DNA of 26,336 nucleotides from a virus. Positions 3,847-26,336 of the stretch are shown here, piece after piece. The stretch's first letter is position 1. Every line of letters starts with the position of its first letter. Where the stretch lies: UHGV virus genome UHGV-0273073. One strand, 5' to 3'. The notes below the pieces were generated by a model that was not told the DNA's origin, made no database searches, and saw only the letters and a list, made by a program, of their open reading frames with translations. The position numbers and the translations under genes were made by a program.

Positions 3847-4015
3847 GAGGTTGCCCCGTATTCAGTGTCGCTGATTTGTATTGTCTGAAGTTGTTTTTAC
3901 GTTAAGTTGATGCAGATCAATTAATACGATACCTGCGTCATAATTGATTATTTGACGTGGTTTGATGGCCTCCACGCACGTTGTGATATGTAGATGATAA
4001 TCATTATCACTTTAC

Positions 4016-4223: not shown

Positions 4224-4234
4224 TGGAATGAGCA

Positions 4235-4754: not shown

Positions 4755-4780
<26 letters not shown>
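4235..4780 (+). CDS. Nu1: Terminase small subunit
   Basis: 181 aa; MEVNKKQLADIFGASIRTIQNWQEQGMPVLRGGGKGNEVLYDSAAVIKWY… essentially as lambda Nu1; winged-HTH N-terminus. Confidence 0.97.
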
Positions 4781-8461
<3,681 letters not shown>

Positions 8462-8481
<20 letters not shown>

Positions 8482-9793
8482 TCTCCCGCATATTGCCAGC
8501 ATGGCCTTTAATGAGCCGCTGATGCTTGAACCCGCCTATGCGCGGGTTTTCTTTTGTGCGCTTGCAGGCCAGCTTGGGATCAGCCGCCTGACGGATGCGG
8601 TGTCCGGCGACAGCCTGACTGCCCAGGAGGCACTCGCGACGCTGGCATTATCCGGTGATGATGACGGACCACGACAGGCCCGCAGTTATCAGGTCATGAA
8701 CGGCATCGCCGTGCTGCCGGTGTCCGGCACGCTGGTCAGCCGGACGCGGGCGCTGCAGCCGTACTCGGGGATGACCGGTTACAACGGCATTATCGCCCGT
8801 CTGCAACAGGCTGCCAGCGACCCGATGGTGGACGGCATTCTGCTCGATATGGACACGCCAGGCGGAATGGTGGCGGGGGCATTTGACTGCGCTGACATCA
8901 TCGCCCGTGTGCGTGACATAAAACCGGTATGGGCGCTGGCCAACGACATGAACTGCAGTGCAGGTCAGCTGCTTGCCAGTGCCGCCTCCCGGCGTCTGGT
9001 CACGCAGACCGCCCGGACAGGCTCCATCGGCGTCATGATGGCTCACAGTAATTACGGTGCTGCCCTGGAGAAACAGGGTGTGGAAATCACGCTGATTTAC
9101 AGCGGCAGCCATAAGGTGGATGGCAATCCCTACAGCCATCTTCCGGATGACGTCCGGGAGACACTGCAGTCCCGGATGGACGCAACCCGCCAGATGTTTG
9201 CGCAGAAGGTGTCGGCATATACCGGCCTGTCTGTGCAGGCTGTGCTGGATACCGAGGCTGCAGTGTACAGCGGTCAGGAGGCCATTGATGCCGGACTGGC
9301 TGATGAACTTGTTAACAGCACCGATGCGATCACCGTCATGCGTGATGCACTGGATGCGCGTAAATCCCGTCTCTCAGGAGGGCGAATGACCAAAGAGACT
9401 CAATCAACAACTGTTTCAGCCACTGCTTCGCAGGCTGACGTTACTGACGTGGTGCCAGCGACGGAGGGCGAAAACGCCAGCGCGGCGCAGCCGGACGTGA
9501 ACGCGCAGATCACCGCAGCGGTTGCGGCAGAAAACAGCCGCATTATGGGGATCCTCAACTGTGAGGAGGCTCACGGACGCGAAGAACAGGCGCGCGTTCT
9601 GGCAGAAACCCCCGGAATGACCGTGGAAACGGCCCGCCGCATTCTGGCTGCAGCACCACAGAGTGCACAGGCGCGCAGTGACACTGCGCTGGATCGTCTG
9701 ATGCAGGGTACACCGGCACCGCTGGCTGCAGGTAACCTGGCATCTGATACCAATAAAGAATTACTTAATACACCTGAAGCTTTACCGGTATAA
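8462..9793 (+). CDS. C: Prohead protease / scaffold fusion (ClpP/SppA-like protease domain)
   Basis: Starts VTAELRNLPHIASMAFNEPLMLEPAYARVFF (GTG 8462) inside the longer track ORF 8315..9793; overlaps the B 3' end; lambda gpC-like. Confidence 0.95.
9386..9793 (+). CDS. Nu3: Scaffolding protein Nu3, in-frame internal start within C
   Basis: ATG at 9386 in the C frame, preceded by CAGGAGGG; MTKETQSTTVSATASQ… as lambda Nu3. Confidence 0.85.
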   Translation: MTKETQSTTVSATASQADVTDVVPATEGENASAAQPDVNAQITAAVAAENSRIMGILNCEEAHGREEQARVLAETPGMTVETARRILAAAPQSAQARSDTALDRLMQGTPAPLAAGNLASDTNKELLNTPEALPV

Positions 9794-9802
9794 GAGGCAG
9801 TT

Positions 9803-10135
9803 ATGGCGACAAAAGAAGAGTTTAACCATTACCAGCCGCTGGGTAACAGTGATCCGGCTCATACAGCAATTGCGCCTGGCGGATTGAGTGCGAAAACGCC
9901 TGCAATGACCCCGCTGATGCTGGATGGCACTACCCGTAAGCTGGTTGTGTGGGATGGCACCACCGACGGTGCAGCCGTTGGCATTCTGGCGGTTGCTGCT
10001 GACCAGACCAGCACCACACTGACGTTCTACAAGTCCGGCTCGTTTCGTTATGAGGATGTGCTCTGGCCGGAGGCTGCCAGCGACGAGACTAAAAAACGGA
10101 CCGCGTTTGCCGGAACGGCAATCAGCATCGTTTAA
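9803..10135 (+). CDS. D: Head decoration protein
   Basis: 110 aa; …[75 protein letters not shown], lambda gpD-like. Confidence 0.97.
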
Positions 10136-10155
10136 TCTTCCCCTTCATCAACAAA

Positions 10156-10177
10156 GGCCGCCTGTGCGGCTTTTTTT
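10156..10177 (+). terminator. Stem-loop plus T-run in the D-E intergenic region (partial terminator/attenuator)
   Basis: GCCGC (10157..10161) - CTGT - GCGGC (10166..10170) followed by seven T (10171..10177). Confidence 0.5.
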
Positions 10178-10190
10178 ATGGAAATAATTT

Positions 10191-10466
10191 ATGTCTGTAT
10201 ATACAACTGCAGAATTACTGGCATCGACCCAGCATCACTTTAAGTTCGATCCGCTGTTTCTGCGCCTGTTTTTCCGTGAAACCTATCCTTTCACCACGGA
10301 AAAAGTCTATCTCTCACAAATTCCGGGACTGGTAAACATGGCGCTGTACGTTTCGCCGATTGTTTCCGGTGAGGTTATCCGATCCCGTGGCGGCTCCACC
10401 TCTGAATTTACGCCGGGTTATGTCAAACCCAAGCACTTAGCATGGCTTTCTGAGGCTTTCGTGTAG
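10191..10466 (+). pseudogene. E: Major capsid protein E, 5' fragment: codons 1-82 (10191..10436) fused to 9 island-encoded codons then stop
   Basis: MSVYTTAELLASTQHHFKFDPLFLRLFFRETYPFTTEKVYLSQIPGLVNMALYVSPIVSGEVIRSRGGSTSEFTPGYVKPKH is lambda gpE N-terminus; homology ends exactly after His82, followed by LAWLSEAFV*. Confidence 0.92.
10426..10435. repeat. Left copy of 10-bp direct repeat AACCCAAGCA (putative attL core)
   Basis: Identical 10-mer at 20558..20567; both copies sit at the breakpoints of E homology. Confidence 0.8.
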
Positions 10467-10563
10467 TTGCTGGTTTTTACACTTAATCTTTTGATAATAA
10501 AGAATAAGTTTATCTGGCGCTTTCACTGGATTTTCCTCGTTATCTGTGTGTTGCAATCATCTC

Positions 10564-10583
10564 TGTATTGCAGCTTGTATTGC
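10564..10583. repeat. Arm-type direct repeats TGTATTGCA / TGTATTGC at 12-bp phasing (left arm, between attL core and int)
   Basis: The same 9-mer occurs three times at 12-bp phasing on the right arm (20449..20481). Confidence 0.65.
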
Positions 10584-10598
10584 TTTTTGGGGCTAAAA

Positions 10599-11834
10599 AT
10601 GGCTGGCGAGAACAAACTGAGCGACAAAGCACTTAAAGGATATCTGGGGAAACCCAGAGAAAAGCAGATCACCATTGCTGATGGAAAGGGGCTTTCTATT
10701 CGTGTGAGTACCAAGGGGGCTGTGAGCTTTGTTTTCTTCTACAGGTTAGCAGGTGGCCGGGCTGCTCCGGTCTGGCTAACGTTGGGTAAATATCCTGATA
10801 TGTCACTCAAACAGGCAAGAGAAAAGCGCGACGAGTGCCGTGGTTGGTTGGCTGACAAACGTGATCCGCGTATCCAGATTAAGATTCAGGCTGAAGAACG
10901 CTTAAAGCCGGTCACAGTGGAGGATGCACTAAATTACTGGTATGAAAATTACTGTAAGGTGCGTCGTAAAACTCATGCTGTAACGCTTGGCAGATTTCGA
11001 AAGCATATCTTTCCCTATATCGGTCATTTGCCCGTAAATGACACTCACCTATATGAATGGCTGGACTGTTTTGACCGAATTAAACGTAATGCACCAGTTA
11101 TGGCGGCGTATGTTTTTTCTGACACTAAATTAGCTCTTCGTTTTTGTCGGGTACGCCAGTACGCGACGTGTGATGCTTTAAAGGATTTGCGCATGAGTGA
11201 TGTGGGGCAGATTGCAGGTAAGCGGGATCGGGTTCTGGATGAAGCCGAACTGGGCCAGCTCTGGAAGGCAATTTTTGTCGAGCCTGATTTAAAACTAATG
11301 TCTGAATACACGCGAAAAATGTTTGTGCTTTGTACAGTATTTGGATGTCGAATGAGTGAAGCCCGATTATCAGAATGGAGCGAATGGGATCTAGAAAGTT
11401 GGGTTTGGACTGTACCAAAAGAACACTCAAAAACCGGTGTTGAAATCGTCAGACCAGTACCTGAAATTCTACGACAGTGGGTAACGGATGTTCACGAAGA
11501 GACAAAACATACTGGTTATGTGCTGGGAAGTCTGCGAATTAGAGAAAGCGTAAGCAAGATTGGGGGGAAAATCGGTAAACGTTTGGGCCATGAAAAACAA
11601 TGGTCACTACACGACCTTAGAAGAACGCTATCTACTCATCTAAGTGATCTCGGTGTTGAATTTTATGTAGTAGAACAACTGTTAGGCCATGCGCTACCTG
11701 GCGTGGCAGGTGTTTACAACCGGAGTAAGTTTATGGCTAAAAAACTGGATGCTCTGGAACTCTGGACTACATATCTCAATAGCATCGCAGGTGCTGATTC
11801 AAAAGTGACAATCCTCAAACAAAAGGCTGGTTAA
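10599..11834 (+). CDS. int: Tyrosine site-specific integrase, P4 family (N-terminal arm-binding DUF4102-like domain)
   Basis: ATG at 10599 (MAGENKLSDKALKGYLGKP…); catalytic-region motifs HDLRRT and GVYNRSK (Tyr); the track's TTG-initiated extension 10467..10598 covers the arm repeats and is unlikely to be coding. Confidence 0.92.
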   Translation: MAGENKLSDKALKGYLGKPREKQITIADGKGLSIRVSTKGAVSFVFFYRLAGGRAAPVWLTLGKYPDMSLKQAREKRDECRGWLADKRDPRIQIKIQAEERLKPVTVEDALNYWYENYCKVRRKTHAVTLGRFRKHIFPYIGHLPVNDTHLYEWLDCFDRIKRNAPVMAAYVFSDTKLALRFCRVRQYATCDALKDLRMSDVGQIAGKRDRVLDEAELGQLWKAIFVEPDLKLMSEYTRKMFVLCTVFGCRMSEARLSEWSEWDLESWVWTVPKEHSKTGVEIVRPVPEILRQWVTDVHEETKHTGYVLGSLRIRESVSKIGGKIGKRLGHEKQWSLHDLRRTLSTHLSDLGVEFYVVEQLLGHALPGVAGVYNRSKFMAKKLDALELWTTYLNSIAGADSKVTILKQKAG

Positions 11835-11835
11835 C

Positions 11836-12066
11836 ATGAAAAAAATGGCAATTGTTGATAAAAAGGGTCTGGAGTACATTCCTAACATTGACCGAATGAT
11901 CCGTGAGAAAGAATGTCGGGAGCTAACCACTCTTGCGAACAGCACACGCTGGAAGCTGGAGAAGGAAGGAAAATTTCCTAAGCGGATCAAGATTGGTTCC
12001 ACTGCTGTTGCATATCGTCTTTCAGAAGTGCAGGCATGGATTCGAGGTGAGTGGGAAACAACTTAA
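11836..12066 (+). CDS. AlpA-family HTH regulator / excisionase-like protein
   Basis: 76 aa; core RELTTLANSTRWKLEKEGKFPKRIKIGSTAVAYRLSEVQAWI fits the AlpA/Xis pattern; directly downstream of int as in P4-like elements and PICIs. Confidence 0.75.
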   Translation: MKKMAIVDKKGLEYIPNIDRMIREKECRELTTLANSTRWKLEKEGKFPKRIKIGSTAVAYRLSEVQAWIRGEWETT

Positions 12067-12082
12067 CTATTAGGTGGGCATT

Positions 12083-12904
12083 GTGGCTATATTTCATTAT
12101 ACAGATCTTTTTGGTTTGAAAGGTATATTAGACTCTAATTCTTTATGGGCTACAAACATATATTTCTTAAATGATAAAGAGGAGTCTAACCATGGATGTG
12201 AATGCTTTCGAAATACAATTAAAATAGTTGATGACAATATCATTCCAAAAGATAAGAAAACTATTTTGCTCAAGTCTCTTGACATGTATGAGAAAGGGAG
12301 GTTACAAAAAGAAAAAGGGATTGATAAACATGTTTATAGCATCTCTTTTTGTAAGGAAAACGATAAGTTAAGTCAGTGGAGAGGTTACGGAAATAAACAG
12401 GGTGTTTGCATTGAGTTTGATGCGGATGAACTTGTGAGCTTTTCTCAAAATATTTATTTAAATTGTGTTGCACATGATGTTATATATTCAAATAATAACG
12501 ATGTTACTAAGATGAGTAAGGAGTTGGGGGCGTTTTTTTCTTGTAATGGTATTAATATTAAAGAAAAGAATGATCATTTTGTAACAATGGCCTCTACGTA
12601 TCAATTTATATCTAAATACATCCCATTTTTTAAACATCCTAGTTTTATCGAAGAAAATGAATTTAGATTGGTATTTACTCCGCGCATACTAATACCAGAT
12701 GTGCAATTCAGAATAAATAATAATGGTGTCATCCCTTATATCATCATTGGTAATAAAGATCATAGGAAGTTACCAATTAAAAGTATTACTATTGGCCCGA
12801 CAAACGATTATGATTTCATTGAGGCTGGTATAAAAATGTTCTTGGATTCAAAAGGATTTAGTTCAGTGGAAATTAAATCCTCATCAATTCCATTCAGGGG
12901 GTAA
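12083..12904 (+). CDS. Cargo protein of unknown function, AT-rich (possibly DUF2971-like)
   Basis: ORF track 12074..12904; GTG at 12083 preceded by AGGTGG; codon usage and AT content clearly differ from flanking genes; motifs IYFLNDKEE and YSISFCKENDKLSQWRGYGNKQGVCIEF. Confidence 0.7.
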   Translation: MAIFHYTDLFGLKGILDSNSLWATNIYFLNDKEESNHGCECFRNTIKIVDDNIIPKDKKTILLKSLDMYEKGRLQKEKGIDKHVYSISFCKENDKLSQWRGYGNKQGVCIEFDADELVSFSQNIYLNCVAHDVIYSNNNDVTKMSKELGAFFSCNGINIKEKNDHFVTMASTYQFISKYIPFFKHPSFIEENEFRLVFTPRILIPDVQFRINNNGVIPYIIIGNKDHRKLPIKSITIGPTNDYDFIEAGIKMFLDSKGFSSVEIKSSSIPFRG

Positions 12905-12949
12905 GGATTAACACTTTTAATCTATGATGTTATAAAAATGGTGGATAAA

Positions 12950-12969
12950 GGCGACCAGAATTGGTCGCC
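12950..12969. terminator. Hairpin between convergent cargo genes (possible bidirectional terminator)
   Basis: GGCGACCA-GAAT-TGGTCGCC, 8-bp perfect stem. Confidence 0.45.
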
Positions 12970-13035
12970 AATGTGAGTATATAGTTAGCCTTAATCAGAA
13001 TACGAGGTTGTCGACTGATAGGCAATGTGAACAGT

Positions 13036-13392
13036 TCAATATTTAGGTGGTTCAACAAGAGCGTTTATCATTGCTCTCAAATTATCGCGAACACTTATCC
13101 AAGTCTGTTCTGCTCGTTCTAACTCATCAGTGTACAACTTTAATGTTTTATCTATGCCATATGTGGCTATTAAATTTATAGCTTCTTGTAACTTTTCGGG
13201 ATTATTCCTTCTTGGGGGAGTGAATATACCACGGATTTTTCCGGTAATTAAAGCTTTACGGTGTCTACATAGAATACCTTTACTTCCTGCTGGACAATTG
13301 CAAGTCATGATTAGCGAGCCAGAATCGTTTGATACAGTGACTATGTATACATCCAAACTACTGCTACTTGTTGCGAAGAATTCGTATTTCAT
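13036..13392 (-). CDS. Small SWIM-type zinc-finger protein (CxC-x8-CxH)
   Basis: 118 aa; TCNCPAGSKGILCRHRKAL; strong AAGGAG Shine-Dalgarno 7 nt upstream of the ATG on the minus strand. Confidence 0.7.
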   Translation of the reverse strand: MKYEFFATSSSSLDVYIVTVSNDSGSLIMTCNCPAGSKGILCRHRKALITGKIRGIFTPPRRNNPEKLQEAINLIATYGIDKTLKLYTDELERAEQTWISVRDNLRAMINALVEPPKY

Positions 13393-13419
13393 GTGTTAGC
13401 TCCTTGACTTCAATTACTC

Positions 13420-13551
13420 TTATCCTTTTGGTTCAATACCGCGCCGTAGCAGCTCTTTGCGCCCTAATTCTTTAAGCCAGTTGGCTAGGCTTATGCCGTC
13501 GCTCTGCGCTTCTTTGTCGAATTGCTCTTTTAGCTCTGGAGAAATTCGCAT
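13420..13551 (-). CDS. Ribbon-helix-helix (CopG/Arc-like) protein, start uncertain
   Basis: MRISPELKEQFDKEAQSDGISLANWLKELGRKELLRRGIEPKG, C-terminal part of track ORF 13420..13734; 27 nt upstream of the SWIM gene on the same strand. Confidence 0.55.
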   Translation of the reverse strand: MRISPELKEQFDKEAQSDGISLANWLKELGRKELLRRGIEPKG

Positions 13552-13946
13552 TCTGAATTGTGGAGATTGCCCATCACCCTTAGGACTTTTATCGCGTTTG
13601 ATTGTTGACAAGTGACCACCTATTGAATTAGCCTTTTTACTGTTAGGTGACCACCTTAACACGGAGGCACTTAAAAAAGCAAAGCCCGAAGGCGCTAGGA
13701 ACACCAACGGGCTTCTAACCACCAACGATAGCAACAGTATCGAGATAGCTATGAGAAATCATACCACACACCCGCAAGGGCGGGACCCGCACAACCTGAA
13801 TAAATACATCTGGCGTTTTATCGCCCTGAGCACCGCACAACCACGCGTAATACACATCGAGGCCGCCAGCGGACAGGAAGCCCGCCAACAATCCCCAACT
13901 GGCTGCGTGATGATATTCGCCGCCCGTATTCGTCAGGAGGTATGCC

Positions 13947-14132
13947 GTGCTTAAAACCTTCCGTGTATTTGCTCGTGCTGTTAACCCACGAGGCCACACA
14001 ATTGGTATCGCTCAGAACGTGAAGGCTGTTAATGTTCAGACGGCTATTGCTGCGGTGAGAAGCGAATCATCAGAATATGGCTTATCACAAGTCATTATTT
14101 CAGCAGTGTATGAATTAAAAGAGGTGCATTAA
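13947..14132 (+). CDS. Hypothetical small protein, first gene of the replication operon
   Basis: GTG start with perfect AGGAGG 6 nt upstream; stop overlaps the next start. Confidence 0.6.
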   Translation: MLKTFRVFARAVNPRGHTIGIAQNVKAVNVQTAIAAVRSESSEYGLSQVIISAVYELKEVH

Positions 14133-14323
14133 TGCAGGAAATCACATTACACGAAGCCGCTGAACGTGCGCACCAGACAGAGATTATTTGCCGCCTTCTT
14201 GAGGTATACCCTGATAAATTAAATGATGCTGATATATCCGCATTAGCTAGTCTTCTGGCAAGACTGTCAGGAAGTGTTGCACTGTGGTTAATTGATCAGA
14301 GGGTAGAACGTTATGGAGAATAA
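14132..14323 (+). CDS. Hypothetical small protein (operon member)
   Basis: Translationally coupled to flanking ORFs. Confidence 0.55.
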   Translation: MQEITLHEAAERAHQTEIICRLLEVYPDKLNDADISALASLLARLSGSVALWLIDQRVERYGE

Positions 14324-14555
14324 TAAACTTTCGCTTGCAGAGGTGTCGGAATCCATGAACAGTGCAATAAGCTATAATAATTCGGCAATTGAAATTGCAA
14401 ACTTGTGGTTTCAATTGCTGTCAAACAACGAAAGAGATGAATCAACGGCAAGACTTATATTTGCTATTTCTGAATTGCTGGATATTTCCACCAGCAAGAT
14501 AAACAAAGCATTAGAAAAAATTCACGAATTAAAACACCACACAAACGGAATTTAA
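14313..14555 (+). CDS. Hypothetical small protein (operon member)
   Basis: Overlaps the previous ORF; AT-rich. Confidence 0.5.
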   Translation: MENNKLSLAEVSESMNSAISYNNSAIEIANLWFQLLSNNERDESTARLIFAISELLDISTSKINKALEKIHELKHHTNGI

Positions 14556-14559
14556 TTAT

Positions 14560-14859
14560 ATGGGAATGAAAAATACTGGTGTTAATGCCAGCGGCCCCGC
14601 TCGACCTGAATTTATGAACGGCGATATTTACCGCGATAAATACGGCGGCACGGTAACGATTAAAGGCGTGGCAGAACGGCGCATCACTTACCGCCGTGAG
14701 GGGTATAGCTATGACTGCGTGATGCCTGTTTATCAGTTCCGGCGTGATTTTTCCCTGGTATATGCCGCACCCCGCAGTAAGCCCACCAGCAGGGAAAAAG
14801 CGCGGGGAAACATCCAGAAAATGAAAAGCATGATTAACGCATTCAGGGGCAAAAAATGA
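14560..14859 (+). CDS. Hypothetical protein upstream of primase (operon member)
   Basis: 99 aa; stop overlaps the primase ATG (ATGA at 14856). Confidence 0.6.
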   Translation: MGMKNTGVNASGPARPEFMNGDIYRDKYGGTVTIKGVAERRITYRREGYSYDCVMPVYQFRRDFSLVYAAPRSKPTSREKARGNIQKMKSMINAFRGKK

Positions 14860-16607
14860 AACTGGCACCGAACTTAAAAAAACAGCCACGCGACAGACTG
14901 ACAGAGGTAATCATCTTTGCAGGTAGTGATGCGTGGAGCCATGCGAAAGAGTGGCAGGAATGGGCGGGTAAACATATTGCCGCCGACGATGTGCCGCCTG
15001 TCGTGCTGGCTGATGAGCAACTGAAAAACATCACCGATTACCGGATCATTGATGAAGATCGTCAGTGTGTGCGTGTTTACCGCGCAGGACATATCACAGA
15101 GCACAGCATGACGCAGATTGTTACGTTACTGGCTGTGGCTGGAGTGAAGACCGTACACGAATACGCGGGGATTACTGACACCAGCCCCGTGGATTTATCC
15201 GACCAGTTGCCGCGACTCAAAGAGGAATGCGAGCGTGGGGAAAGCCTGGTGCTTAATCTTCCGACGAAGCAAAAGGAGCAACTTTCACAGATGGCAGACA
15301 GTGAGCGGGCACAACTACTTGCCGATCGCTTTGATGGTGTTTGTGTTCATGCAGAAAGTGAAATCGTCCACGTATGGCGCGGCGGGGTATGGTGTCCGGT
15401 CAGCACAATGGAGCTGAGCCGCGAAATGGTGGCGATCTATTCAGAGCACAGGGCCACGTTCAGCAAACGCGTAATCAATAACGCCGTGGAAGCGTTAAAA
15501 GTTATTGCCGCCCCCATGGGGGAGCCGTCCGGTGATTTGCTACCGTTCACTAATGGTGTGCTTAATCTGAAAACGGGGGAATTTTCTCCGCACTCGCCGG
15601 AGCACTGGAGCACCACGCACAATGGTATTGAGTACACGCCACCAGTAGCAGGGGAAAACATCCGCGATAATGCGCCAAATTTCCATAAATGGCTTGAACA
15701 TGCTGCAGGAAAAGACCCGCGCAAGATGATGCGTATATGTGCCGCGTTATACATGATTATGGCGAACCGCTACGACTGGCAGATGTTCATTGAGGCCACC
15801 GGAGACGGGGGAAGCGGTAAGAGTACATTTACCCATATTGCCACCCTGCTTGCAGGCAAACAGAACACCGTAAGCGCAGAGATGACATCACTCGATGATG
15901 CAGGAGGGCGCGCGCAGGTTGTCGTGAGTCGTCTTATCGTCCTTGCCGATCAGCCGAAATATACGGGGGAAGGCACGGGCATCAAGAAAATCACGGGAGG
16001 CGATCCCGTTGAAATCAATCCGAAATATGAGAAGCGATTCACGACGATAATAAGGGCGGTGGTACTGGCAACCAATAACGACCCGATGATCTTTACCGAA
16101 CGGGCCGGAGGTGTGTCACGCCGTCGGGTGATTTTCCGGTTCGACAACATTGTAAGGGAGGACGAAAAAGACAAGGAATTACCGGAAAAGATAGCGGCAG
16201 AAATCCCCGTAATTATCCGCCGCTTGCTGGCTAACTTTGCTGACCCTGAAAAGGCAAGGGCTTTACTACTGGAACAGCGTGACGGTGATGAAGCTCTGGC
16301 AATAAAGCAGCAAACGGATCCAGTTGTTGAGCTTTGCGCGGCGCTTGAGTTTCTGGATGAAGCTCGTGGGCTAATGATGGGCGGTGGTGGTGACTCCGTG
16401 AAGTACACGACCAGAAACAGCCTTTACCGTGTCTATATGGCCTTCATGGCATACACAGGAAAGGGGAAATGTTTGAGCGTGAATGAGTTCGGAAAGGCTA
16501 TGAGGTCAGCGGCGAAAGTTTACGGATATGAATATATTACGCGAAAAGTTAAGGGAGTCACGCAGACCAACGCAACGACTACTGATGATTGCGATGCGTT
16601 TTTATAA
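14856..16607 (+). CDS. Replication primase/helicase (P4-alpha/PICI pri-rep-like, P-loop NTPase)
   Basis: 583 aa; Walker A GDGGSGKST; Walker B-like VLADQ; immediately followed by the iteron array. Confidence 0.85.
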   Translation: MKLAPNLKKQPRDRLTEVIIFAGSDAWSHAKEWQEWAGKHIAADDVPPVVLADEQLKNITDYRIIDEDRQCVRVYRAGHITEHSMTQIVTLLAVAGVKTVHEYAGITDTSPVDLSDQLPRLKEECERGESLVLNLPTKQKEQLSQMADSERAQLLADRFDGVCVHAESEIVHVWRGGVWCPVSTMELSREMVAIYSEHRATFSKRVINNAVEALKVIAAPMGEPSGDLLPFTNGVLNLKTGEFSPHSPEHWSTTHNGIEYTPPVAGENIRDNAPNFHKWLEHAAGKDPRKMMRICAALYMIMANRYDWQMFIEATGDGGSGKSTFTHIATLLAGKQNTVSAEMTSLDDAGGRAQVVVSRLIVLADQPKYTGEGTGIKKITGGDPVEINPKYEKRFTTIIRAVVLATNNDPMIFTERAGGVSRRRVIFRFDNIVREDEKDKELPEKIAAEIPVIIRRLLANFADPEKARALLLEQRDGDEALAIKQQTDPVVELCAALEFLDEARGLMMGGGGDSVKYTTRNSLYRVYMAFMAYTGKGKCLSVNEFGKAMRSAAKVYGYEYITRKVKGVTQTNATTTDDCDAFL

Positions 16608-16620
16608 AAAATGGCAATGG

Positions 16621-16850
16621 TTATCTACCTTGTCTACCTGACTGAAAGAAAATACTTTTATTTCAATGTATTAATGCAGGTAGATAACTATTTTTCACTG
16701 TCTACCTGTTATCTACCTTATCTACCCATTTTTGTAGACAGGTAAGGAGACGGGTAGAGATGAGGTAGACAGCTATTTGGGGCTGTCTACCTCCCTGAAA
16801 CCCGCGCCATTACTGGCCTGATAACTAATCAGGTAGACAAGGTAGACAAG
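16621..16850. repeat. Iteron-type replication origin: at least 12 copies of GTCTACC / GGTAGAC in both orientations plus an AT-rich spacer
   Basis: Copies at about 16623, 16632, 16678, 16701, 16711, 16720, 16734, 16753, 16764, 16785, 16831, 16841; AT-rich 16641..16676. Confidence 0.8.
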
Positions 16851-16896
16851 GTGGTGGTGCACAAAAAACTTTTTAAACGAGGGGGTAAAAATAAAA

Positions 16897-17154
16897 ATGC
16901 ACACATCAGGAAAACTGAACAAACATATAAAGCCACATTACCGCGCCCTTGATATGGCTGAACACTGGCTAAGGGTGGCGATTAAGGCAATAGACCGCAA
17001 CGCCGGGGAAGGATACGCGAAAGCACATCCCGAACTGATAAGCGCATTCATGACAACGGCGGCTGCAAACTTTGCCACGCTGACCGAACGGGAGATTGCC
17101 GAAGCGGAGGAAGTGACAACCATCAATATTAAGTCCGGAGAGCAGGCAGCATGA
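16897..17154 (+). CDS. Hypothetical 85-aa protein
   Basis: Stop overlaps the ssb start. Confidence 0.5.
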   Translation: MHTSGKLNKHIKPHYRALDMAEHWLRVAIKAIDRNAGEGYAKAHPELISAFMTTAAANFATLTEREIAEAEEVTTINIKSGEQAA

Positions 17155-17600
17155 CGGCGCAAATAGCAGCTTACGGGCGGCTGGTGGACGCCCCGCAGAC
17201 AAAACAGACCAGCAAGGGCACCCCCATGACGCTGGCGCGTATGGCGGTATCACTGCCCTGCAGCCAGTCGGATGACGGTCAGGCGACGATGTGGTTATCT
17301 GTTCTGGCGTTTGGCAGACAAGCCGACGCGCTGGCAAAGCATCACAAAGGCGAACTCCTGAGCGTGGCGGGTAACATGCAGGTGAGTCAGTGGACTGGAC
17401 AGAACGGTGAAACGCGGCAGGGCTGGCAGGTTATCGCAGACAGCGTAATCAGTGCGCGAACGGTGCGACCGGGCGGCAAAAAAGGCCAACAGGGGCAGGC
17501 TACTGACGCACTGAACAGAGCAAAACAACAGGCAGATCAGCAAGGAAGCCATCCACCAGTGGGAGATAATGAGCAATGGGGAGATGATATTCCGTTTTAA
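17151..17600 (+). CDS. ssb: Single-stranded DNA-binding protein
   Basis: 149 aa; OB-fold core and acidic C-terminal tail ending DDIPF, as in E. coli SSB. Confidence 0.9.
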   Translation: MTAQIAAYGRLVDAPQTKQTSKGTPMTLARMAVSLPCSQSDDGQATMWLSVLAFGRQADALAKHHKGELLSVAGNMQVSQWTGQNGETRQGWQVIADSVISARTVRPGGKKGQQGQATDALNRAKQQADQQGSHPPVGDNEQWGDDIPF

Positions 17601-17618
17601 ATATTGCCAATAAAAAAG

Positions 17619-17643
17619 GCCGGAAAAAAATAAATTTTCCGGC
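17619..17643 (+). other. Hairpin (9-bp stem GCCGGAAAA / TTTTCCGGC) between ssb and the capsid-homolog gene
   Basis: Perfect inverted repeat with 7-nt loop AAATAAA; no downstream T-run. Confidence 0.4.
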
Positions 17644-17817
17644 ATGCTACATAAATCCAGACCAAAGGGAGTGAAGATATTAACACTAATTATCCGCGCT
17701 GAAGTTGTCATCCCAAAACTTTATACAACATTGCACTCGGTTGCATGTATTCGCATGACAAATATCGGTGATAGCATATATCCACAATTATTTTTAATGA
17801 ATGCAAAGAGGATGCGT

Positions 17818-18858
17818 ATGGTTGATTTATATTCGCCTACCCAGCTTGTACAGGTGGTTAATGCTGTAGATGTACAAAAACAACTAAATGCGTTGTTTAC
17901 CAGTTTGTTTTTTACTCGCTCGGTAATGTTTGAATCGCGCGATATTATTCTTGATACAATCGACGATCCAAATATCCCAATTGCAGCGTTTTGTTCTCCT
18001 ATGGTGGGTAGTAAAGTTTCACGTGACGAAGGGTACGAATCAAAAACAATTCGTCCAGGCTATATGAAGCCGAAAAGCAGCATTGATCCAAATAAGTTAG
18101 CTGTGCGCCCTGCTGGTGTATCACCTGAGCAATACAATGCTTTTGGAGCGCGTAATATTAAAGTTAAACAGGCGATTGTAAATCAGGCTAAAGCTATTCG
18201 TGCACGTATTGAATGGCTTGCCGTTCAGGCAATCACAACGGGGAAAAATATCATTGAGGGCGATGGTATTGAACGTTATGAGCTGGACTGGAATATTAAA
18301 CCACAAAATATCATCACTCAGTCTGGCGGTGCTGAGTGGTCAGGTAAGGATAAAGAAACTTTTGATCCAAATGATGATATTGAGAGCTACGCAGAATTTA
18401 GTGAGGGCGTCACTAATATCATCATTATGGGCGGTAATGTATGGAAGAAATACCGTTCATTCAGAGCGATAAAAGAGGCTCTGGATACCCGTCGTGGTTC
18501 TAATTCCGAACTGGAAACGGCCCTTAAAGACCTTGGTGATTCGGTGAGTTTTAAAGGGTATATGGGCGATGTTGCGATTGTTGTATACAGCGGGCGTTAT
18601 ACCGACGAGGACGGAACTGAAAAACATTTCCTTGATCCTGATTTGATGGTGCTTGGCAATACGGCTCTTCAGGGGATTGTCGCCTATGGCGGTATTCAGG
18701 ATCCGGAGCTAATCCGAATGGGGCTGACTAAAGCCGAACTTGCACCGAAAAACTATATTGTGCCTGGTGATCCGGCTATTGAATATGTGCAGACACATTC
18801 AGCACCACAGCCAATACCGGCCCGCATCAATCGTTTTGTTACCGTTCGCATTGGCTAA
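17818..18858 (+). CDS. Island-encoded major capsid protein homolog (divergent gpE-like)
   Basis: 346 aa from ATG 17818 (AGAGG 6 nt upstream), inside track ORF 17644..18858. Blocks ITQSGGAEWSGKDKETFDPNDDIESYA and DTRRGSNSELETALKDLGDSVSFKGYMGDVAIVVYSG align with ITQSGGTEWSKRDKSTYDPTDDIEAYA and DTRRGSHSELETAVKDLGKAVSYKGMYGDVAIVVYSG of the resident E (20569..21348). Confidence 0.9.
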   Translation: MVDLYSPTQLVQVVNAVDVQKQLNALFTSLFFTRSVMFESRDIILDTIDDPNIPIAAFCSPMVGSKVSRDEGYESKTIRPGYMKPKSSIDPNKLAVRPAGVSPEQYNAFGARNIKVKQAIVNQAKAIRARIEWLAVQAITTGKNIIEGDGIERYELDWNIKPQNIITQSGGAEWSGKDKETFDPNDDIESYAEFSEGVTNIIIMGGNVWKKYRSFRAIKEALDTRRGSNSELETALKDLGDSVSFKGYMGDVAIVVYSGRYTDEDGTEKHFLDPDLMVLGNTALQGIVAYGGIQDPELIRMGLTKAELAPKNYIVPGDPAIEYVQTHSAPQPIPARINRFVTVRIG

Positions 18859-18867
18859 GGGGGAGCA

Positions 18868-19209
18868 ATGGCTACTCATTACACTGAACTCATGGCTGGC
18901 ACTGAAGCACTGGTGACTACGCTGGGGATATTTTCAGCTAATAAAGGGGTAATTCCTGCATTTACGCCACTGATGCAGGAAGATGCAACAGGTGCACTGG
19001 TGGTATGGGATGGTTCGAGCGTAGGTAAAGCGGTTTATGTTTCCGCTGTACAAATCGACACCGCGAAAAAAACACAGGCTCAGGTCTATAAGACAGGTGT
19101 CTTAAATGTTGATGCTCTGAACTGGCCTGAGTCTGTAAAAGAACTGTCAGTAAAGATTGCAGCGTTTGTTGGCTCAGGTATTTCTGTTCAGCCGCTGGCT
19201 CGTGTGTAA
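18868..19209 (+). CDS. Island-encoded head decoration protein homolog (divergent gpD-like)
   Basis: 113 aa; TPLMQEDATGALVVWDGSS…YKTGVLNVDALNWPES…AAFVGSGISV aligns with resident [20 protein letters not shown]…[16 protein letters not shown]…[11 protein letters not shown]. Confidence 0.8.
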   Translation: MATHYTELMAGTEALVTTLGIFSANKGVIPAFTPLMQEDATGALVVWDGSSVGKAVYVSAVQIDTAKKTQAQVYKTGVLNVDALNWPESVKELSVKIAAFVGSGISVQPLARV

Positions 19210-19220
19210 AGGGGGATACA

Positions 19221-19604
19221 ATGCAAAATGATTACAATGACCTTAAGCCAATTGCCGAAATGATGTACCCGAATCCAGCTGTAGAGGAATTAAAAGCTAT
19301 CGCTGACAAAATGTGTTTAAGCGAGCGCCTTGTTGATATGAATCAGGTGATGGAAATTACAACCCTGAGTCGGCGTACACTGCTAAACCTTGAGGCTAGT
19401 GGAGAGTTCCCGGAGCGTGTGCAGGTTACGGAAGGGCGTAAGGCCTGGTATTTAAGTGAAGTGATCGACTGGATAAATAATATTCCTCGCGCTTCTGAAT
19501 ATTGCCGCGTACCTGTCCCAAAAAAGCCAGATGCGGCGCTATGCCTCAAGATTGAGCGTGTACGCCGCAATGCACGGGATGGTCGCTATAAGCTGATTGG
19601 TTGA
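19221..19604 (+). CDS. HTH protein (AlpA/excisionase-like fold with N-terminal extension) adjacent to the cos-like site
   Basis: 127 aa; MNQVMEITTLSRRTLLNLEASGEFPERVQVTEGRKAWYLSEVIDWI. Confidence 0.6.
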   Translation: MQNDYNDLKPIAEMMYPNPAVEELKAIADKMCLSERLVDMNQVMEITTLSRRTLLNLEASGEFPERVQVTEGRKAWYLSEVIDWINNIPRASEYCRVPVPKKPDAALCLKIERVRRNARDGRYKLIG

Positions 19605-19629
19605 TGAAATTAGGGCCCGCTCTGGCTGG

Positions 19630-19838
19630 CGGGTCCTTTCCGGCGATCTGACAGGCTACGGGGCGTCAGGCGCGCGGATTTTCGCTATTTATGAAAATTT
19701 TCCGGTTTAAGGCGTTTCCGTTCTTCTTCGTCGTAACTTAATGTTTTTATTTAAAATACCCCCTGAAAAGAAAGGAAACGACAGGTGCTGAAAGCGAGCT
19801 TTTTGGCCTCTGTCGTTTCCTTTCTCGTTTTTTGTTCA
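19630..19838 (+). promoter_or_regulatory. Island cos-like packaging site: cosQ/cosB nearly identical to the prophage cos (4016..4223), divergent cosN-equivalent 12-mer GGGCGTCAGGCG at 19661..19672
   Basis: By-eye alignment: about 150 bp of the cosB arm differ by only a few substitutions; the cosN 12-mer differs at 5 of 12 positions; no terminase genes in the island. Confidence 0.85.
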
Positions 19839-20185
19839 ACAATTGCGCGGTAGCAACTCGCCTTTCTGCTGCTGGAACTTATCCGGCACGTTTCCAGTGA
19901 TATCTGTCAGACAGCAGGCAAACAGGAGACAACGCAGTCGGACAGCACGACCGCTGAAAATTACGCGCGTGTGGTGCTTGAGGTTATGCGCCGTGACGGT
20001 ATCGAGCTTAACGGCGTGGATATGTGCAACATACGCACCAGAGTTCTGGAGTTGTTGCCATATCGTCGCCGTTCCATGTAGCGAAGGGAGAGCGCGAAAA
20101 ACACTTACCAGTGGAAGAAGCAGGAGCGGTTACGGCGGTAACTTGCTGATATTCCCGATAACGCAAAATTGCGTTGGCTGGCAGA

Positions 20186-20404
20186 GTGCAAATTTGCACG
20201 ATGGTCTAACCCATTGATTCTTTCGAAAATCACCATTGGGGGATAACGGGGGAATAAGCCTAACCCATTGATTCTTCCACAATCCTCAATTTGAGGAGAG
20301 CGGAATTATTACATGGCTGGATCAGGACTCCTTGAATTCAAGGAGTTCTCCTGTGTGAAAATGAAATTACCCAAGTTGGTGGGTGAGTTGCAGATCTGCA
20401 ACTC
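20186..20404. promoter_or_regulatory. Cluster of four palindromes in the island right arm: 20186..20199, 20284..20296, 20328..20345, 20385..20404
   Basis: GTGCAAATTTGCAC (14 bp, perfect), CCTCAATTTGAGG (imperfect), CTCCTTGAATTCAAGGAG (18 bp, perfect), GAGTTGCAGATCTGCAACTC (20 bp, perfect). Confidence 0.6.
20206..20276. repeat. Two copies of the 17-mer CTAACCCATTGATTCTT (20206..20222, 20260..20276), resembling the att core (AACCCA…)
   Basis: Exact direct repeat; shares AACCCA with the core AACCCAAGCA. Confidence 0.6.
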
Positions 20405-20448
20405 GGCTATGAAACTTAATAATCGAACAGCATGTAAATTCATTTCTG

Positions 20449-20481
20449 TGTATTGCAGCATGTATTGCAGCATGTATTGCA
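20449..20481. repeat. Three phased copies of TGTATTGCA (12-bp period), right-arm arm-type sites
   Basis: 20449, 20461, 20473; the same motif occurs twice on the left arm (10564..10583). Confidence 0.65.
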
Positions 20482-20557
20482 ACATAGTCATTCTGGTAGA
20501 GATTATGCTCTATTTTTCCTCTTATATCATTCACATACTTACGTCATTGACTCATGT

Positions 20558-20567
20558 AACCCAAGCA
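20558..20567. repeat. Right copy of 10-bp direct repeat AACCCAAGCA (putative attR core)
   Basis: Identical to 10426..10435; E homology resumes 1 nt after it. Confidence 0.8.
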
Positions 20568-20568
20568 T

Positions 20569-21348
20569 GAGGTGAATCCGCAGATGACCCTGCGTCGCCT
20601 GCCGGATGAAGATCCGCAGAACCTGGCTGACCCGGCTTACCGTCGTCGCCGTATTATTCGGCAGAATATGCTGGATGAAAATCTGGCGATTGCCCAGGTC
20701 GAAGAGATGCAGGCAGTTTCTGCCGTGCTTAAGGGCAAATACACCATGACCGGTGAAGCCTTCGATCCGGTTGAGGTGGATATGGGCCGCAGTGCGGCGA
20801 ATAACATCACGCAGTCCGGCGGCACAGAGTGGAGCAAGCGTGACAAGTCCACGTATGACCCGACCGACGATATCGAAGCCTACGCGCTGAACGCCAGCGG
20901 TGTGGTGAATATCATCGTGTTTGATCCGAAAGGCTGGGCGCTGTTCCGTTCCTTCAAGGCCGTCAAGGAGAAGCTGGATACCCGTCGCGGCTCTCATTCC
21001 GAGCTGGAGACAGCGGTAAAAGACCTGGGCAAAGCGGTGTCTTATAAGGGAATGTATGGCGATGTGGCCATCGTCGTGTATTCCGGACAGTACGTGGAAA
21101 ACGGCGTCAAAAAGAACTTCCTGCCGGACAACACGATGGTGCTGGGGAACACTCAGGCACGCGGTCTGCGCACCTATGGTTGCATTCAGGATGCGGACGC
21201 ACAGCGCGAAGGCATTAACGCCTCTGCCCGTTACCCGAAAAACTGGGTGACCACCGGCGACCCGGCGCGTGAGTTCACCATGATTCAGTCAGCACCGCTG
21301 ATGCTGCTGGCTGACCCTGATGAGTTCGTGTCCGTTCAACTGGCGTAA
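20569..21348 (+). pseudogene. E: Major capsid protein E, 3' portion (codons 83-341), separated from its 5' part by the island
   Basis: Frame reads TAA-P-K-H-EVNPQMTLRRLPDEDPQNL… through the normal C-terminus …DPDEFVSVQLA; 82 + 259 residues = 341 as in lambda gpE; an in-frame TAA (20557..20559) lies just upstream. Confidence 0.92.
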
Positions 21349-21389
21349 TCATGGCCCTTCGGGGCCATTTTCTCTCTGTGGAGGAGTCC

Positions 21390-21785
21390 ATGACGAAAGA
21401 TGAACTGATTGCCCGTCTCCGGTCGCTGGGTGAGCAACTGAACCGTGATGTCAGCCTGACGGGGACGAAAGAAGAACTGGCGCTCCGTGTGGCAGAGCTG
21501 GAAGAGGAGCTTGATGACACGGATGACGCAGCCGGTCAGGACACGTCTGTCAGCCCGGAAAATGCGCTGACCGGACATGAAAATGAGGTGGTATCAGCAC
21601 AGCCGGATTCCGTGACTGATACGGCTGCTCTGGTCACGGTTGTGGCACTGGTGACGCTGCATACCGATGCACTTCACGTCACGCGGGATGAGGCTGTGGC
21701 ATTTGTGCTGCCGGGAACGGCGTTTCGTGTCTCTGCCGGTGTGGCAGCCGAAATGACAGAACGTGGCCTGGCCAGAATGCAATAA
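21390..21785 (+). CDS. FI: DNA packaging / head completion protein FI
   Basis: MTKDELIARLRSLGEQLNRDVSLTGTKEELALRVAELEEELDD…, lambda gpFI-like; ATG 21390 with GGAGG upstream. Confidence 0.93.
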   Translation: MTKDELIARLRSLGEQLNRDVSLTGTKEELALRVAELEEELDDTDDAAGQDTSVSPENALTGHENEVVSAQPDSVTDTAALVTVVALVTLHTDALHVTRDEAVAFVLPGTAFRVSAGVAAEMTERGLARMQ

Positions 21786-21796
21786 CGGGAGGCGCT

Positions 21797-22150
21797 GTGG
21801 CTGATTTCGATAACCTGTTCGATGCTGCCATTGCCCGCGCCGATGAAACGATACGCGGGTACATGGGAACGTCAGCCACCATGACATCCGGTGAGCAGTC
21901 CGGCGCAGTAATACGTGGTGTTTTTGATGACCCTGAAAATATCAGCTATGCCGGACAGGGCGTACGCGTTGAAGGCTCCAGCCCGTCCCTGTTTGTCCGG
22001 ACTGATGATGTGCGGCAGCTGCGGCGCGGCGACACGCTAACCATCGGTGAGGAAAACTTCTGGATAGACCGGATTTCGCCGGATGATGGCGGAAGCTGTC
22101 ATCTCTGGCTTGGGCGGGGCGTACCGCCTGCCGTTAACCGTCGCCGCTGA
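21797..22150 (+). CDS. FII: Head-tail connector protein FII
   Basis: 117 aa, lambda gpFII-like. Confidence 0.95.
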   Translation: MADFDNLFDAAIARADETIRGYMGTSATMTSGEQSGAVIRGVFDDPENISYAGQGVRVEGSSPSLFVRTDDVRQLRRGDTLTIGEENFWIDRISPDDGGSCHLWLGRGVPPAVNRRR

Positions 22151-24734: not shown

Positions 24735-26336
24735 ACCGGTAGGCGATCTGGTCGTTGATTTGAGTCTGGATGCGGCCAGATTTGACGAGCAGATGGCCAG
24801 AGTCAGGCGTCATTTTTCCGGTACGGAAAGTGATGCGAAAAAAACAGCGGCAGTCGTTGAACAGTCGCTGAGCCGACAGGCGCTGGCTGCACAGAAAGCG
24901 GGGATTTCCGTCGGGCAGTATAAAGCCGCCATGCGTATGCTGCCTGCACAGTTCACCGACGTGGCCACGCAGCTTGCAGGCGGGCAAAGTCCGTGGCTGA
25001 TCCTGCTGCAACAGGGTGGTCAGGTTAAGGACTCCTTCGGCGGGATGATCCCCATGTTCAGGGGGCTTGCCGGTGCGATCACCCTGCCGATGGTGGGGGC
25101 CACCTCGCTGGCGGTGGCGACCGGTGCGCTGGCGTATGCCTGGTATCAGGGCAACTCAACCCTGTCCGATTTCAACAAAACGCTGGTCCTTTCCGGCAAT
25201 CAGGCGGGACTGACGGCAGATCGTATTCTGGCCCTGTCCAGAGCCGGGCAGGCGGCAGGGCTGACGTTTAACCAGACCAGCGAGTCACTGACGGCGCTGG
25301 TGAATGCCGGTGTGCGTGGTGGTGAGCAGTTTGAGGCGATCAGCCAGAGTGTGGCGCGTTTCTCCTCTGCATCCGGCGTGGAGGTGGACAAGGTCGCTGA
25401 AGCCTTCGGGAAGCTGACCACAGACCCGACGTCGGGACTGACAGCGATGGCACGTCAGTTCCATAACGTGACGGCGGAGCAGATTGCGTATGTTGCTCAG
25501 TTGCAGCGTTCCGGAGATGAAGCCGGGGCATTGCAGGCGGCGAACGAGGCCGCAACGAAAGGGTTTGATGACCAGACCCGCCGCCTGAAAGAGAACATGG
25601 GCACGCTGGAGACCTGGGCAGACAGGACAGCACGGGCATTCAAATCCATGTGGGATTCGGTGCTGGATATTGGTCGCCCGGACACTGCCCGGGAAATGCT
25701 GGAGAAAGCAGAAAAGGCTTTTGATGAGGCGGACAAAAAATGGCAGTGGTATCAGAGCCGGAGCCACCGGCGCGGTAAAACATCCGCATTTCTTGCCAAT
25801 CTCCGGGGAGCATGGGAGGACAGAGCGAATGCGCAACTTGGGCTTTCAGCCGCCACGTTGCAGGCCGATCTTGAAAAGGCCAGAGAGATGGCAGCAAAGG
25901 ACTGGGCCGAGTCTGAGGCATCACGGCTGAAATATACCGAAGAGGCGCAGAAGGCTTATGAACGCCTGCAGACGCCGCTGGAGAAATATACCGCCCGTCA
26001 GGAAGAACTGAACAAGGCACTGAAGGACGGGAAAATTCTGCAGGCAGATTACAACACGCTGATGGCGGCGGCGAAAAAGGACTATGAAGCGACGCTGAAA
26101 AAGGCGAAACAGTCCGGCGTGAAGGTGTCTGCGGGCGATCGTCAGGAAGACAGTGCTCATGCTGCCCTGCTGACGCTTCAGGCTGAACTCTGGACGCTGG
26201 AGAGGCATGCCGGAGCAAATGAGAAAATCAGCCAGCAGCGCCGGGATTTGTGGAAGGCGGAGAGTCAGTTCGCGGTACTGGAGGAGGCGGCGCAACGTCG
26301 CCAGCTGTCTGCACAGGAGAAATCCCTGCTGGCGCA
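24727..26336 (+). CDS. H: Tail tape-measure protein H, 3'-partial (runs off the window)
   Basis: ATG 24727 overlapping the T stop; MAEPVGDLVVDLSLDAARFDEQMARVRRHFSGTESDAKKTAAVVEQ… is lambda gpH-like; open to the end of the window; not in the ORF track because no stop is reached. Confidence 0.93.
   Translation, partial: MAEPVGDLVVDLSLDAARFDEQMARVRRHFSGTESDAKKTAAVVEQSLSRQALAAQKAGISVGQYKAAMRMLPAQFTDVATQLAGGQSPWLILLQQGGQVKDSFGGMIPMFRGLAGAITLPMVGATSLAVATGALAYAWYQGNSTLSDFNKTLVLSGNQAGLTADRILALSRAGQAAGLTFNQTSESLTALVNAGVRGGEQFEAISQSVARFSSASGVEVDKVAEAFGKLTTDPTSGLTAMARQFHNVTAEQIAYVAQLQRSGDEAGALQAANEAATKGFDDQTRRLKENMGTLETWADRTARAFKSMWDSVLDIGRPDTAREMLEKAEKAFDEADKKWQWYQSRSHRRGKTSAFLANLRGAWEDRANAQLGLSAATLQADLEKAREMAAKDWAESEASRLKYTEEAQKAYERLQTPLEKYTARQEELNKALKDGKILQADYNTLMAAAKKDYEATLKKAKQSGVKVSAGDRQEDSAHAALLTLQAELWTLERHAGANEKISQQRRDLWKAESQFAVLEEAAQRRQLSAQEKSLLA

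Follow-up and report, generated by a model that had tools for sequence, protein, structure and literature searches.

The DNA analysed here is a single stretch of 26,336 bp from the virus genome UHGV-0273073, the whole of which we call the window. It contains a phage-inducible chromosomal island (PICI) embedded in a lambda-like helper prophage, and the subject of this analysis is an array of short repeats that lies directly behind the pri-rep gene of the island. The open reading frame (ORF) of pri-rep, which encodes 583 amino acids (aa), is separated from a small downstream ORF, ORF85, by a 289-bp non-coding gap (16608–16896) in which no ORF of at least 50 aa is present. The array (16622–16848) begins 15 bp past the pri-rep stop codon at 16607; the coordinates of all features are collected in Table 1.

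Repeat statistics and geometry of the array

The unit common to all copies in the array is the hexamer TCTACC (GGTAGA on the opposite strand), with variable flanks. Within 223 bp (16624–16846) we counted 11 exact copies, six on the plus and five on the minus strand, and one degenerate copy. Only three isolated copies of TCTACC occur elsewhere in the window, and 0.03 would be expected in the array stretch (Poisson P~4e-25). The 7-mer GTCTACC is found seven times in the window, where 1.34 copies are expected, with six of them located in 16632–16847; none of 100 shuffled sequences reached seven copies. Besides these six exact sites the array shows the 7-mer forms ATCTACC (four), CTCTACC (one) and GTCTACA (one). 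Searching for TRTCTACC with at most one mismatch yielded 12 sites in 16622–16848, 10 exact and two with one mismatch. An earlier note on this DNA had described at least 12 copies of the 7-mer in both orientations within about 230 bp. That the repeats exceed chance at this place is confirmed by these statistics; the count of 12 holds for the hexamer (11 exact, one degenerate) but not for the 7-mer, of which six copies are exact. The AT-rich stretch mentioned in the same note was recovered as the left spacer of the array, with an AT content of 78% over 40 bp. The 30-bp core of this spacer, starting at 16646, is the eighth least stable non-overlapping 30-mer of the window: its nearest-neighbour free energy is −29.7, compared with a window mean of −41.1 (standard deviation 4.1).

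The hexamers are arranged with pronounced regularity. Counted from the left end the sites lie at offsets 0+, 9+, 55−, 77+, 88+ and 97+, and counted from the right end on the other strand at 0+, 9+, 55−, 77+ and 88+. As the offsets are identical from either end, the array consists of two mirror-image modules. In each, a pair of tandem sites is separated by exactly 40 bp of spacer from an inverted site, behind which two or three further sites stand in tandem. Five mirrored plus/minus pairs surround a dyad centre at ~16735, and the outer pairs are joined by an inverted repeat of 21 nt with 95% complementarity. The dyad centre itself is not AT-rich; the AT-rich spacer sits off-centre with two sites on its left and ten on its right.

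The two spacers behave differently when related origins are compared. For this comparison we used the 56 distinct TCTACC-type origin sequences that 87 related loci provided. Among them the left spacer is AT-rich, variable and poorly conserved, whereas the right spacer carries a block, CTGAAAsCCGCGyCATTACTGG (16795–16816), whose conservation equals that of the iterons. Across the whole region the hexamers stand out as a footprint: hexamer columns are 93.7% conserved, compared with 73.8% for the other columns of 16608–16860 (Mann–Whitney P 2e-15), and the dinucleotides flanking the hexamers vary among the related origins.

Evidence for a probable PICI replication origin and rival readings

With high probability the array serves a Gram-negative PICI as its vegetative replication origin (ori), used together with Pri-Rep, a self-loading SF3 helicase encoded immediately upstream. 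The structural hallmarks of a Gram-negative PICI origin of the EcCICFT073 type are present, namely the position, the layout of sites around a spacer, the homology of the initiator and the constellation of island elements. The earlier note had proposed a Rep-bound iteron origin with an unwinding element, and position, anatomy, the adjacent initiator and the comparative data all speak in favor of that proposal.

EcCICFT073 was located in the CFT073 chromosome for comparison. Its Pri-Rep is 80% identical to that of the window over the full length, with 43% identity in the N-terminal 135 aa, 94% in the helicase and 82% in the origin-binding domain (OBD), and both proteins are paired with TCTACC iterons. 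The EcCICFT073 ori aligns colinearly with 16590–16900 at a mean column identity of 87%, with all hexamers in place. Since the ori is colinear and the Pri-Rep proteins are 80% identical, the array of the window is of the same origin type as the published, tested one. In both islands the ori lies immediately 3′ of pri-rep, and they share the number and spacing of the hexamers (0, 9, 55, 77, 88, 97, 128/129 and so on), the AT-rich spacer, the conserved block in the right spacer and the gene order ORF85–ssb–capsid–decoration. They differ in the dinucleotides that flank several hexamers and in their location: EcCICFT073 occupies a chromosomal site, whereas the island of the window sits in a prophage capsid gene. 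In E. coli, rep plus ori of EcCICFT073 keeps a temperature-sensitive plasmid at 44°C (Fillol-Salom et al. 2018, ISME J, PMC6092414). In this assay rep was supplied from an arabinose promoter, and deletion of rep abolished plasmid maintenance (PMC6092414).

Pri-Rep is composed of a variable N-terminal domain (aa 1–135), a D5_N and superfamily 3 (SF3) ATPase part (aa ~150–480) and the C-terminal OBD. Pfam matches were obtained for D5_N, DUF5906 and Pox_D5. Sequence searches against the PDB matched aa 225–441 to 7OLA, the SaPI5 PriRep helicase (E 2.4e-14), and aa 487–578 to 1KA8, the P4 alpha origin-binding domain (E 2.9e-7); the 1KA8 entry is reportedly the OBD structure from the 2002 work of Yeo and colleagues. 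A tblastn comparison with P4 alpha gave 41% identity over aa 137–579. Walker A (GDGGSGKS), Walker B (D365), motif C (N408) and an RRR arginine finger (R422–424) are invariant in the Pri-Rep alignment. By these homologies Pri-Rep is established as an SF3 helicase with an origin-binding domain. The earlier note had spoken of a primase/helicase: the helicase stands, but a primase domain was not detected in Pri-Rep. Its N-terminal domain gave no Pfam primase match and no sequence similarity to the primase region of P4 alpha, it lacks a zinc ribbon, and the canonical EGxxD and DxD motifs were not found in it. A match to TIGR01613 ('primase_Cterm') covers the helicase part and is below the cutoff. 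Judged from these searches, the 'primase' in the name of the protein is inherited from family annotation. The AlphaFold model of full-length Pri-Rep was poor (predicted local distance difference test score, pLDDT, of 45) with only the N-terminal domain folded confidently, because the available homologs were all at least 79% identical. A homolog search returned only near-identical E. coli proteins.

A further line of evidence comes from relatives with other iterons. A scan of genome contigs returned four loci, three of which are informative distant relatives. In these relatives position and layout are kept while the repeated word changes: the Serratia aquatilis relative (51% identical protein) carries TGTTCAC iterons, the Morganella relative (51% identical protein) carries TGTTCAT iterons, and the E. 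albertii relative, whose protein has a different C-terminus, carries TTGTCCC iterons. The inverted site lies 54–55 bp from the first iteron in the window, the P4 ori and the Serratia relative alike. The OBDs fall into two clades that coincide with the iteron classes: the first is made up of the window, EcCICFT073 and the related locus L005 (81–97% identical, all TCTACC), the second of the PICI Eco567.11capE (11capE), Serratia, Morganella and P4 (mutually 46–55% identical, TGTTCA(C/T) iterons), and the identity between the two clades is ~30%. In the proteins and origins compared, the iteron class follows the class of the C-terminal OBD and not the N-terminal domain, the integrase or the insertion site. 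ORF85 is 78–84% conserved in relatives of both iteron types; it is thus not the specificity determinant, and we rejected it as iteron binder. The upstream DUF4222 gene was also rejected as a specificity partner, being itself mosaic with no consistent pattern; judging from the wording of the paper, it is probably absent from the published EcCICFT073 rep–ori construct.

The most instructive relative is 11capE of E. coli NRG857c, for which the helper-embedded arrangement was first published (Tommasini, Mageeney and Williams 2023, PMC10111431). It shares with the island of the window the insertion into a lambda-like capsid gene E, a 10-bp identity block and the gene order. The N-terminal domain of its Pri-Rep is the closest to that of the window (64% identical), whereas the helicase is 47% and the OBD 33% identical, and its origin (25051–25337 of our locus L094) has P4-type TGTTCAC(C) iterons together with a P4-like OBD. 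As the two islands share the insertion site yet differ in the replicon, replicon cassettes appear to be swapped among islands with the same integrase and target site. The iteron class tracks the OBD across differing N-terminal domains and a TCTACC replicon is also present in a capsid-forming PICI, so that helicase, OBD and ori behave as one cassette.

Two database records deserve a description of their own. In CP088587.1 a TCTACC-type pri-rep/ori cassette (14777–15064 of locus L095) lies in a capsid-forming PICI with HK97 capsid, portal, terminase and HNH genes. This 32.5-kb record is deposited as a 'plasmid' and is flanked by chromosomal pntAB and mdtJI; it looks like a misassigned chromosomal fragment carrying the capsid-forming PICI, and we rejected it as evidence of episomal replication. 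The second record, NZ_CP148328.1 (10,790 bp, circular; locus L096), is deposited as an E. coli plasmid and represents a complete PICI with integrase, AlpA, DUF4222, pri and a protease–capsid fusion. It carries TGTTCACC iterons at about 5555–5790; here a finished genome contains a satellite that was assembled as a circle outside the chromosome.

From this material a working order of events can be proposed. The OBDs of Pri-Rep would probably bind the TCTACC hexamers; in P4 alpha, a winged-helix DNA-binding module is likewise placed after the helicase (PMC2777425). The two mirror-image modules could nucleate oppositely oriented helicase assemblies, resulting in double-hexamer loading, and melting would most likely begin in the AT-rich left spacer. 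Next, the helicase would close around single strands and unwind in the outward direction, while the single-strand DNA-binding protein (SSB) of the island would coat the strands and the host polymerase would elongate.

Several points weigh against the array being the replication origin of this island. Deletion of the EcCICFT073 ori reduced colony numbers significantly without abolishing colony formation (PMC6092414). A primase domain was detected neither in Pri-Rep nor in the rest of the island, which leaves the self-sufficiency of the replicon incompletely explained. The winged-helix fold of the Pri-Rep C-terminus is predicted from sequence homology, and activity and autonomous replication of this island copy after excision would follow by analogy with its relatives. 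After induction of 11capE, the attP:attB ratio was ~1 in two of three experiments, that is, little or no replication after excision, and 1.6–1.9 in the third (PMC10111431). This island, which carries the other (TGTTCAC) replicon class, is the only helper-embedded PICI followed after induction. By analogy, autonomous replication after excision may be weak in the helper-embedded configuration, with passive replication within the helper being dominant.

The 11capE ratios would also fit an array that is an inactive or auxiliary relic, the island being copied passively by its lambda-like helper. In a variant of this explanation the array acts as a cis enhancer comparable to P4 crr with initiation elsewhere; P4 depends on ori as well as on a second, separate cis element, crr, and it is crr that adjoins the 3′ end of the alpha gene. 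However, pri-rep has a full-length ORF whose ATPase motifs are intact, and no hexamer is missing in comparison with the functional EcCICFT073 ori. Furthermore, the array itself holds a module of the P4-ori type, and neither the island nor the window contains a second hexamer cluster (the three other copies are isolated), so that there is no candidate for a separate ori. We therefore regard a relic or a mere enhancer as improbable.

Slightly less plausible still is that the array serves mainly as a transcriptional operator for the downstream operon (ORF85, ssb and the capsid-like genes), bound by Pri-Rep or an AlpA-type regulator and having no role in initiation. Genes in the same orientation do follow directly behind the array, two AlpA-family proteins are encoded in the island, relatives share an invariant 3′ end of the gap (16865–16886, AAAACTTTTTAAACGAGGGGGT), and iterons of plasmid origins often also autoregulate. 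However, the invariant block is the ribosome-binding region of ORF85, and a sigma-70-like promoter or terminator consensus was not found in the array region. The iteron type tracks the OBD of the helicase, whereas ORF85 is conserved across both types, and the orthologous region of EcCICFT073 acts as an origin while rep is expressed from the arabinose promoter. The hexamers may nevertheless have a secondary regulatory role beside the origin function.

Packaging signals (cosB- or pac-like) and recombination sites (integrase arm or excisionase sites) are extremely unlikely readings: cosB and attP arms are also built of short repeated protein-binding sites and the integrase has an arm-binding domain, but the cos site of the island lies 3 kb downstream of the array, the att cores are at the island ends with no hexamer cluster near either, and two islands inserted at the same site of the capsid gene have different iteron types. 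Equally negligible are a plasmid-type origin run by a host initiator (DnaA boxes, RepA/pi-type iterons) and a chance cluster: TTATCTACC resembles the DnaA box TTATCCACA at seven of nine positions, but TTWTNCACA has no exact match and one unrelated one-mismatch match in the array region, relatives do not keep the TTAT prefix (their flanks read CTG, CCC or CCA), and chance is excluded by the repeat statistics given above. The array region contains no DnaA-box cluster, no GATC and no conserved IHF site. A known RNA family was also rejected, as no Rfam match was obtained in 10000–21000.

Island, neighbouring genes and prophage

The sequences flanking the island (4046–10435 and 20558–21900) are contiguous in the lambda-like phage Perceval with 98.5% and 97.4% identity, respectively. 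Capsid gene E is split into an N-terminal fragment (10191–10435) and a C-terminal fragment (20558–21348), and the island is co-oriented with the late operon of the helper. The att cores at 10426–10435 and 20558–20567 are 6 kb and 4 kb away from the array. Genes are arranged in the order tyrosine integrase, AlpA, accessory genes, DUF4222, Pri-Rep, array, ORF85 and SSB, followed by genes for a capsid-E-like, a decoration-like and a second AlpA-like protein. The constellation typical of a PICI is thus present, with int (10467–11834), alpA (11836–12066) and pri-rep pointing the same way and with cos. ORF85 has no Pfam or NCBIfam match, and the ssb gene takes the same place in EcCICFT073, 11capE and other relatives.

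At least 80% of the island is found in ~26 complete E. coli genomes. The segment pri–ori–ORF85 was matched in 1007 of 5426 genomes, in all cases on the chromosome. A complete and apparently intact replicon speaks for labelling the 10.1-kb insert a functional phage satellite and not prophage debris.

Some observations concern other parts of the island. Its cos site is preceded by the second AlpA-like gene and followed by two small ORFs (19843–20217 and 20313–20570) without family assignment. At 17644–19209 the island encodes its own capsid protein of the lambda-E family (404-aa ORF) and a decoration protein of the lambda-D family, despite interrupting the E gene of the helper; the EcCICFT073 counterparts (c1499 and c1500) are reported to be dispensable for transfer and interference. 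A variable slot between alpA and the replication genes (12074–13392) holds a DUF2971 protein (12074–12904, plus strand) and a SWIM zinc-finger protein (13036–13392, minus strand), which give weak matches to the PADLOC candidate defence families PDC-S31 and PDC-S62. In relatives the accessory slots are occupied by HicB, Abi or HEPN/DUF262 genes.

Table 1. Features of the array, its initiator and the surrounding island (window coordinates)
Feature	Position	Strand	Basis or remarks
Left outer iteron pair	16624..16638	+	TCTACC at 16624 and 16633 (distance 9 bp); no variation among the 56 distinct related origins
AT-rich left spacer, candidate DNA-unwinding element	16639..16678		40 bp, 78% AT
Single inverted iteron GGTAGA closing the AT-rich spacer	16679..16684	-	Hexamer scan
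Inner left iteron triplet	16701..16726	+	TCTACC at 16701, 16712 and 16721
Inner right iterons	16733..16769	-	Degenerate TGTAGA at 16733; GGTAGA at 16753 and 16764
Single iteron, mirror of the 16679 site	16786..16791	+	Hexamer scan
Right spacer	16792..16831		40 bp, 50% AT; conserved non-iteron block 16795-16816
Right outer iteron pair, mirror of the left pair	16832..16846	-	GGTAGA at 16832 and 16841, 9 bp apart
Pri-Rep, initiator and replicative helicase, 583 aa	14856..16607	+	Pfam, PDB sequence search, identity to EcCICFT073
Putative hexamer reader: C-terminal winged-helix OBD, aa 487-578	16314..16589	+	Homology to 1KA8; OBD clade tracks iteron type
ORF85, 85 aa	16897..17154	+	Directly after the origin; overlaps the SSB start codon
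SSB, likely replication accessory	17151..17600	+	Pfam SSB, TIGR00621
Helper-embedded PICI, ~10.1 kb	10426..20567	+	Flanked by 10-bp direct repeat AACCCAAGCA; interrupts lambda-like major capsid gene E
Cos (packaging) site of the island itself	19630..19835	+	206 bp, 94% identical to prophage cos 4015-4220

Comparison with P4, SaPI and plasmid origins

The design of the array is already known: it has been described for E. coli PICIs since 2018 and is real but ordinary. Possibly new are the exact mirror geometry, which the P4 ori module shares, the rule connecting OBD and iteron class with the exchange of cassettes, the conserved GC-rich block and the lack of a detectable primase. The rule could predict replicon incompatibility or cross-talk between co-resident satellites, the mirror-symmetric geometry supplies a specific model of how a bacterial SF3 helicase could be loaded as a double hexamer, and the failure to detect a primase raises the question of the primer source.

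The facts on P4 iterons used here are taken from the annotated record NC_001609 and from general knowledge. This record labels TGTTCACC as 'ori type 1 repeats' in both cis elements, ori and crr, the latter placed directly behind the alpha gene. On the corresponding strand, the sites of the P4 ori have offsets of 0+, 10+, 54−, 75+, 86+ and 96+, within 2 bp of each half-array of the window. Both systems have an SF3 helicase followed by a homologous C-terminal OBD, an iteron of the 8-bp class in both orientations, a module of the form ++ / ~40-bp AT-rich spacer / − / +++ and a cis element (crr in P4) directly 3′ of the initiator gene. The P4 ori, 11capE, EcCICFT073 and the relatives from Serratia and Morganella all have an AT-rich spacer at the position seen in the window. 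The window differs from P4 in the iteron (TCTACC core versus TGTTCACC) and the OBD, which is only about 31% identical. It has one compact dyad-symmetric array, whereas ori and crr are ~4.5 kb apart in P4, and it lacks the zinc-ribbon/TOPRIM primase region of alpha as well as the type 2 repeats. Measured against the P4 ori/crr–alpha replicon, the window thus agrees in the OBD behind an SF3 helicase and in the site layout, and departs in the iteron, the bipartite elements and the primase domain.

At the sequence level the origin of the window shows no similarity to P4. In 11capE the left half of the origin matches the P4 ori with 73% identity over 109 nt (E 4e-10) and the right half matches it on the opposite strand with 77% over 75 nt (E 3e-11). 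As the two halves align with the P4 ori in both orientations, the most fitting description of the PICI origin would be a P4-ori module duplicated in inverted orientation. In the TGTTCAC-type origins (11capE and L096) the spacer matching the right spacer of the window is AT-rich and has a 15-nt identity with the P4 crr spacer. We offer the following joint picture tentatively, as possible rather than probable. PICIs and P4 would form one family with at least two OBD/iteron classes (TCTACC and TGTTCAC), the PICI origin having arisen as an inverted P4-ori duplication, and helicase–OBD–ori cassettes would be exchanged among classical, capsid-forming and helper-embedded PICIs. In the TCTACC class one spacer would have been replaced by the conserved GC-rich block and a working primase lost, leaving a variable TOPRIM-like N-terminal domain without catalytic motifs, with priming borrowed from host or helper.

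Origins of Staphylococcus aureus pathogenicity islands (SaPIs) contain 6–12 penta- or hexanucleotide iterons after rep and an AT-rich centre with at least two oppositely pointing iterons on each side (Ubeda et al.; Qiao et al. 2022, PMC9371898). The window resembles this layout in part, with twelve hexamers after rep and an AT-rich spacer that has ++ on its left and − on its right, but this spacer is off-centre and the dyad centre is not AT-rich. Both systems place the ori directly behind rep and use as initiator a self-loading helicase that ends in a winged-helix domain, predicted from homology in the case of the window; SaPI PriRep5 and Pri-Rep of the window are detectably homologous in the helicase core. 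SaPIs differ in that iterons and binding domains are unrelated, that a recognisable primase, separate or fused, is usually present, and that they belong to a Gram-positive lineage and are regulated by the Stl repressor.

Iteron origins of plasmids such as pSC101, R6K, RK2 and P1 are composed of mostly direct iterons of 17–22 bp, DnaA boxes and an AT-rich element, and their initiators are winged-helix proteins (dimer/monomer) that recruit host DnaA and DnaB. The window is unlike these origins in its 6-bp cores, the use of both orientations, an initiator that is itself a helicase and the lack of DnaA boxes. What it shares with them is the juxtaposition of repeated initiator sites and an AT-rich unwinding element.

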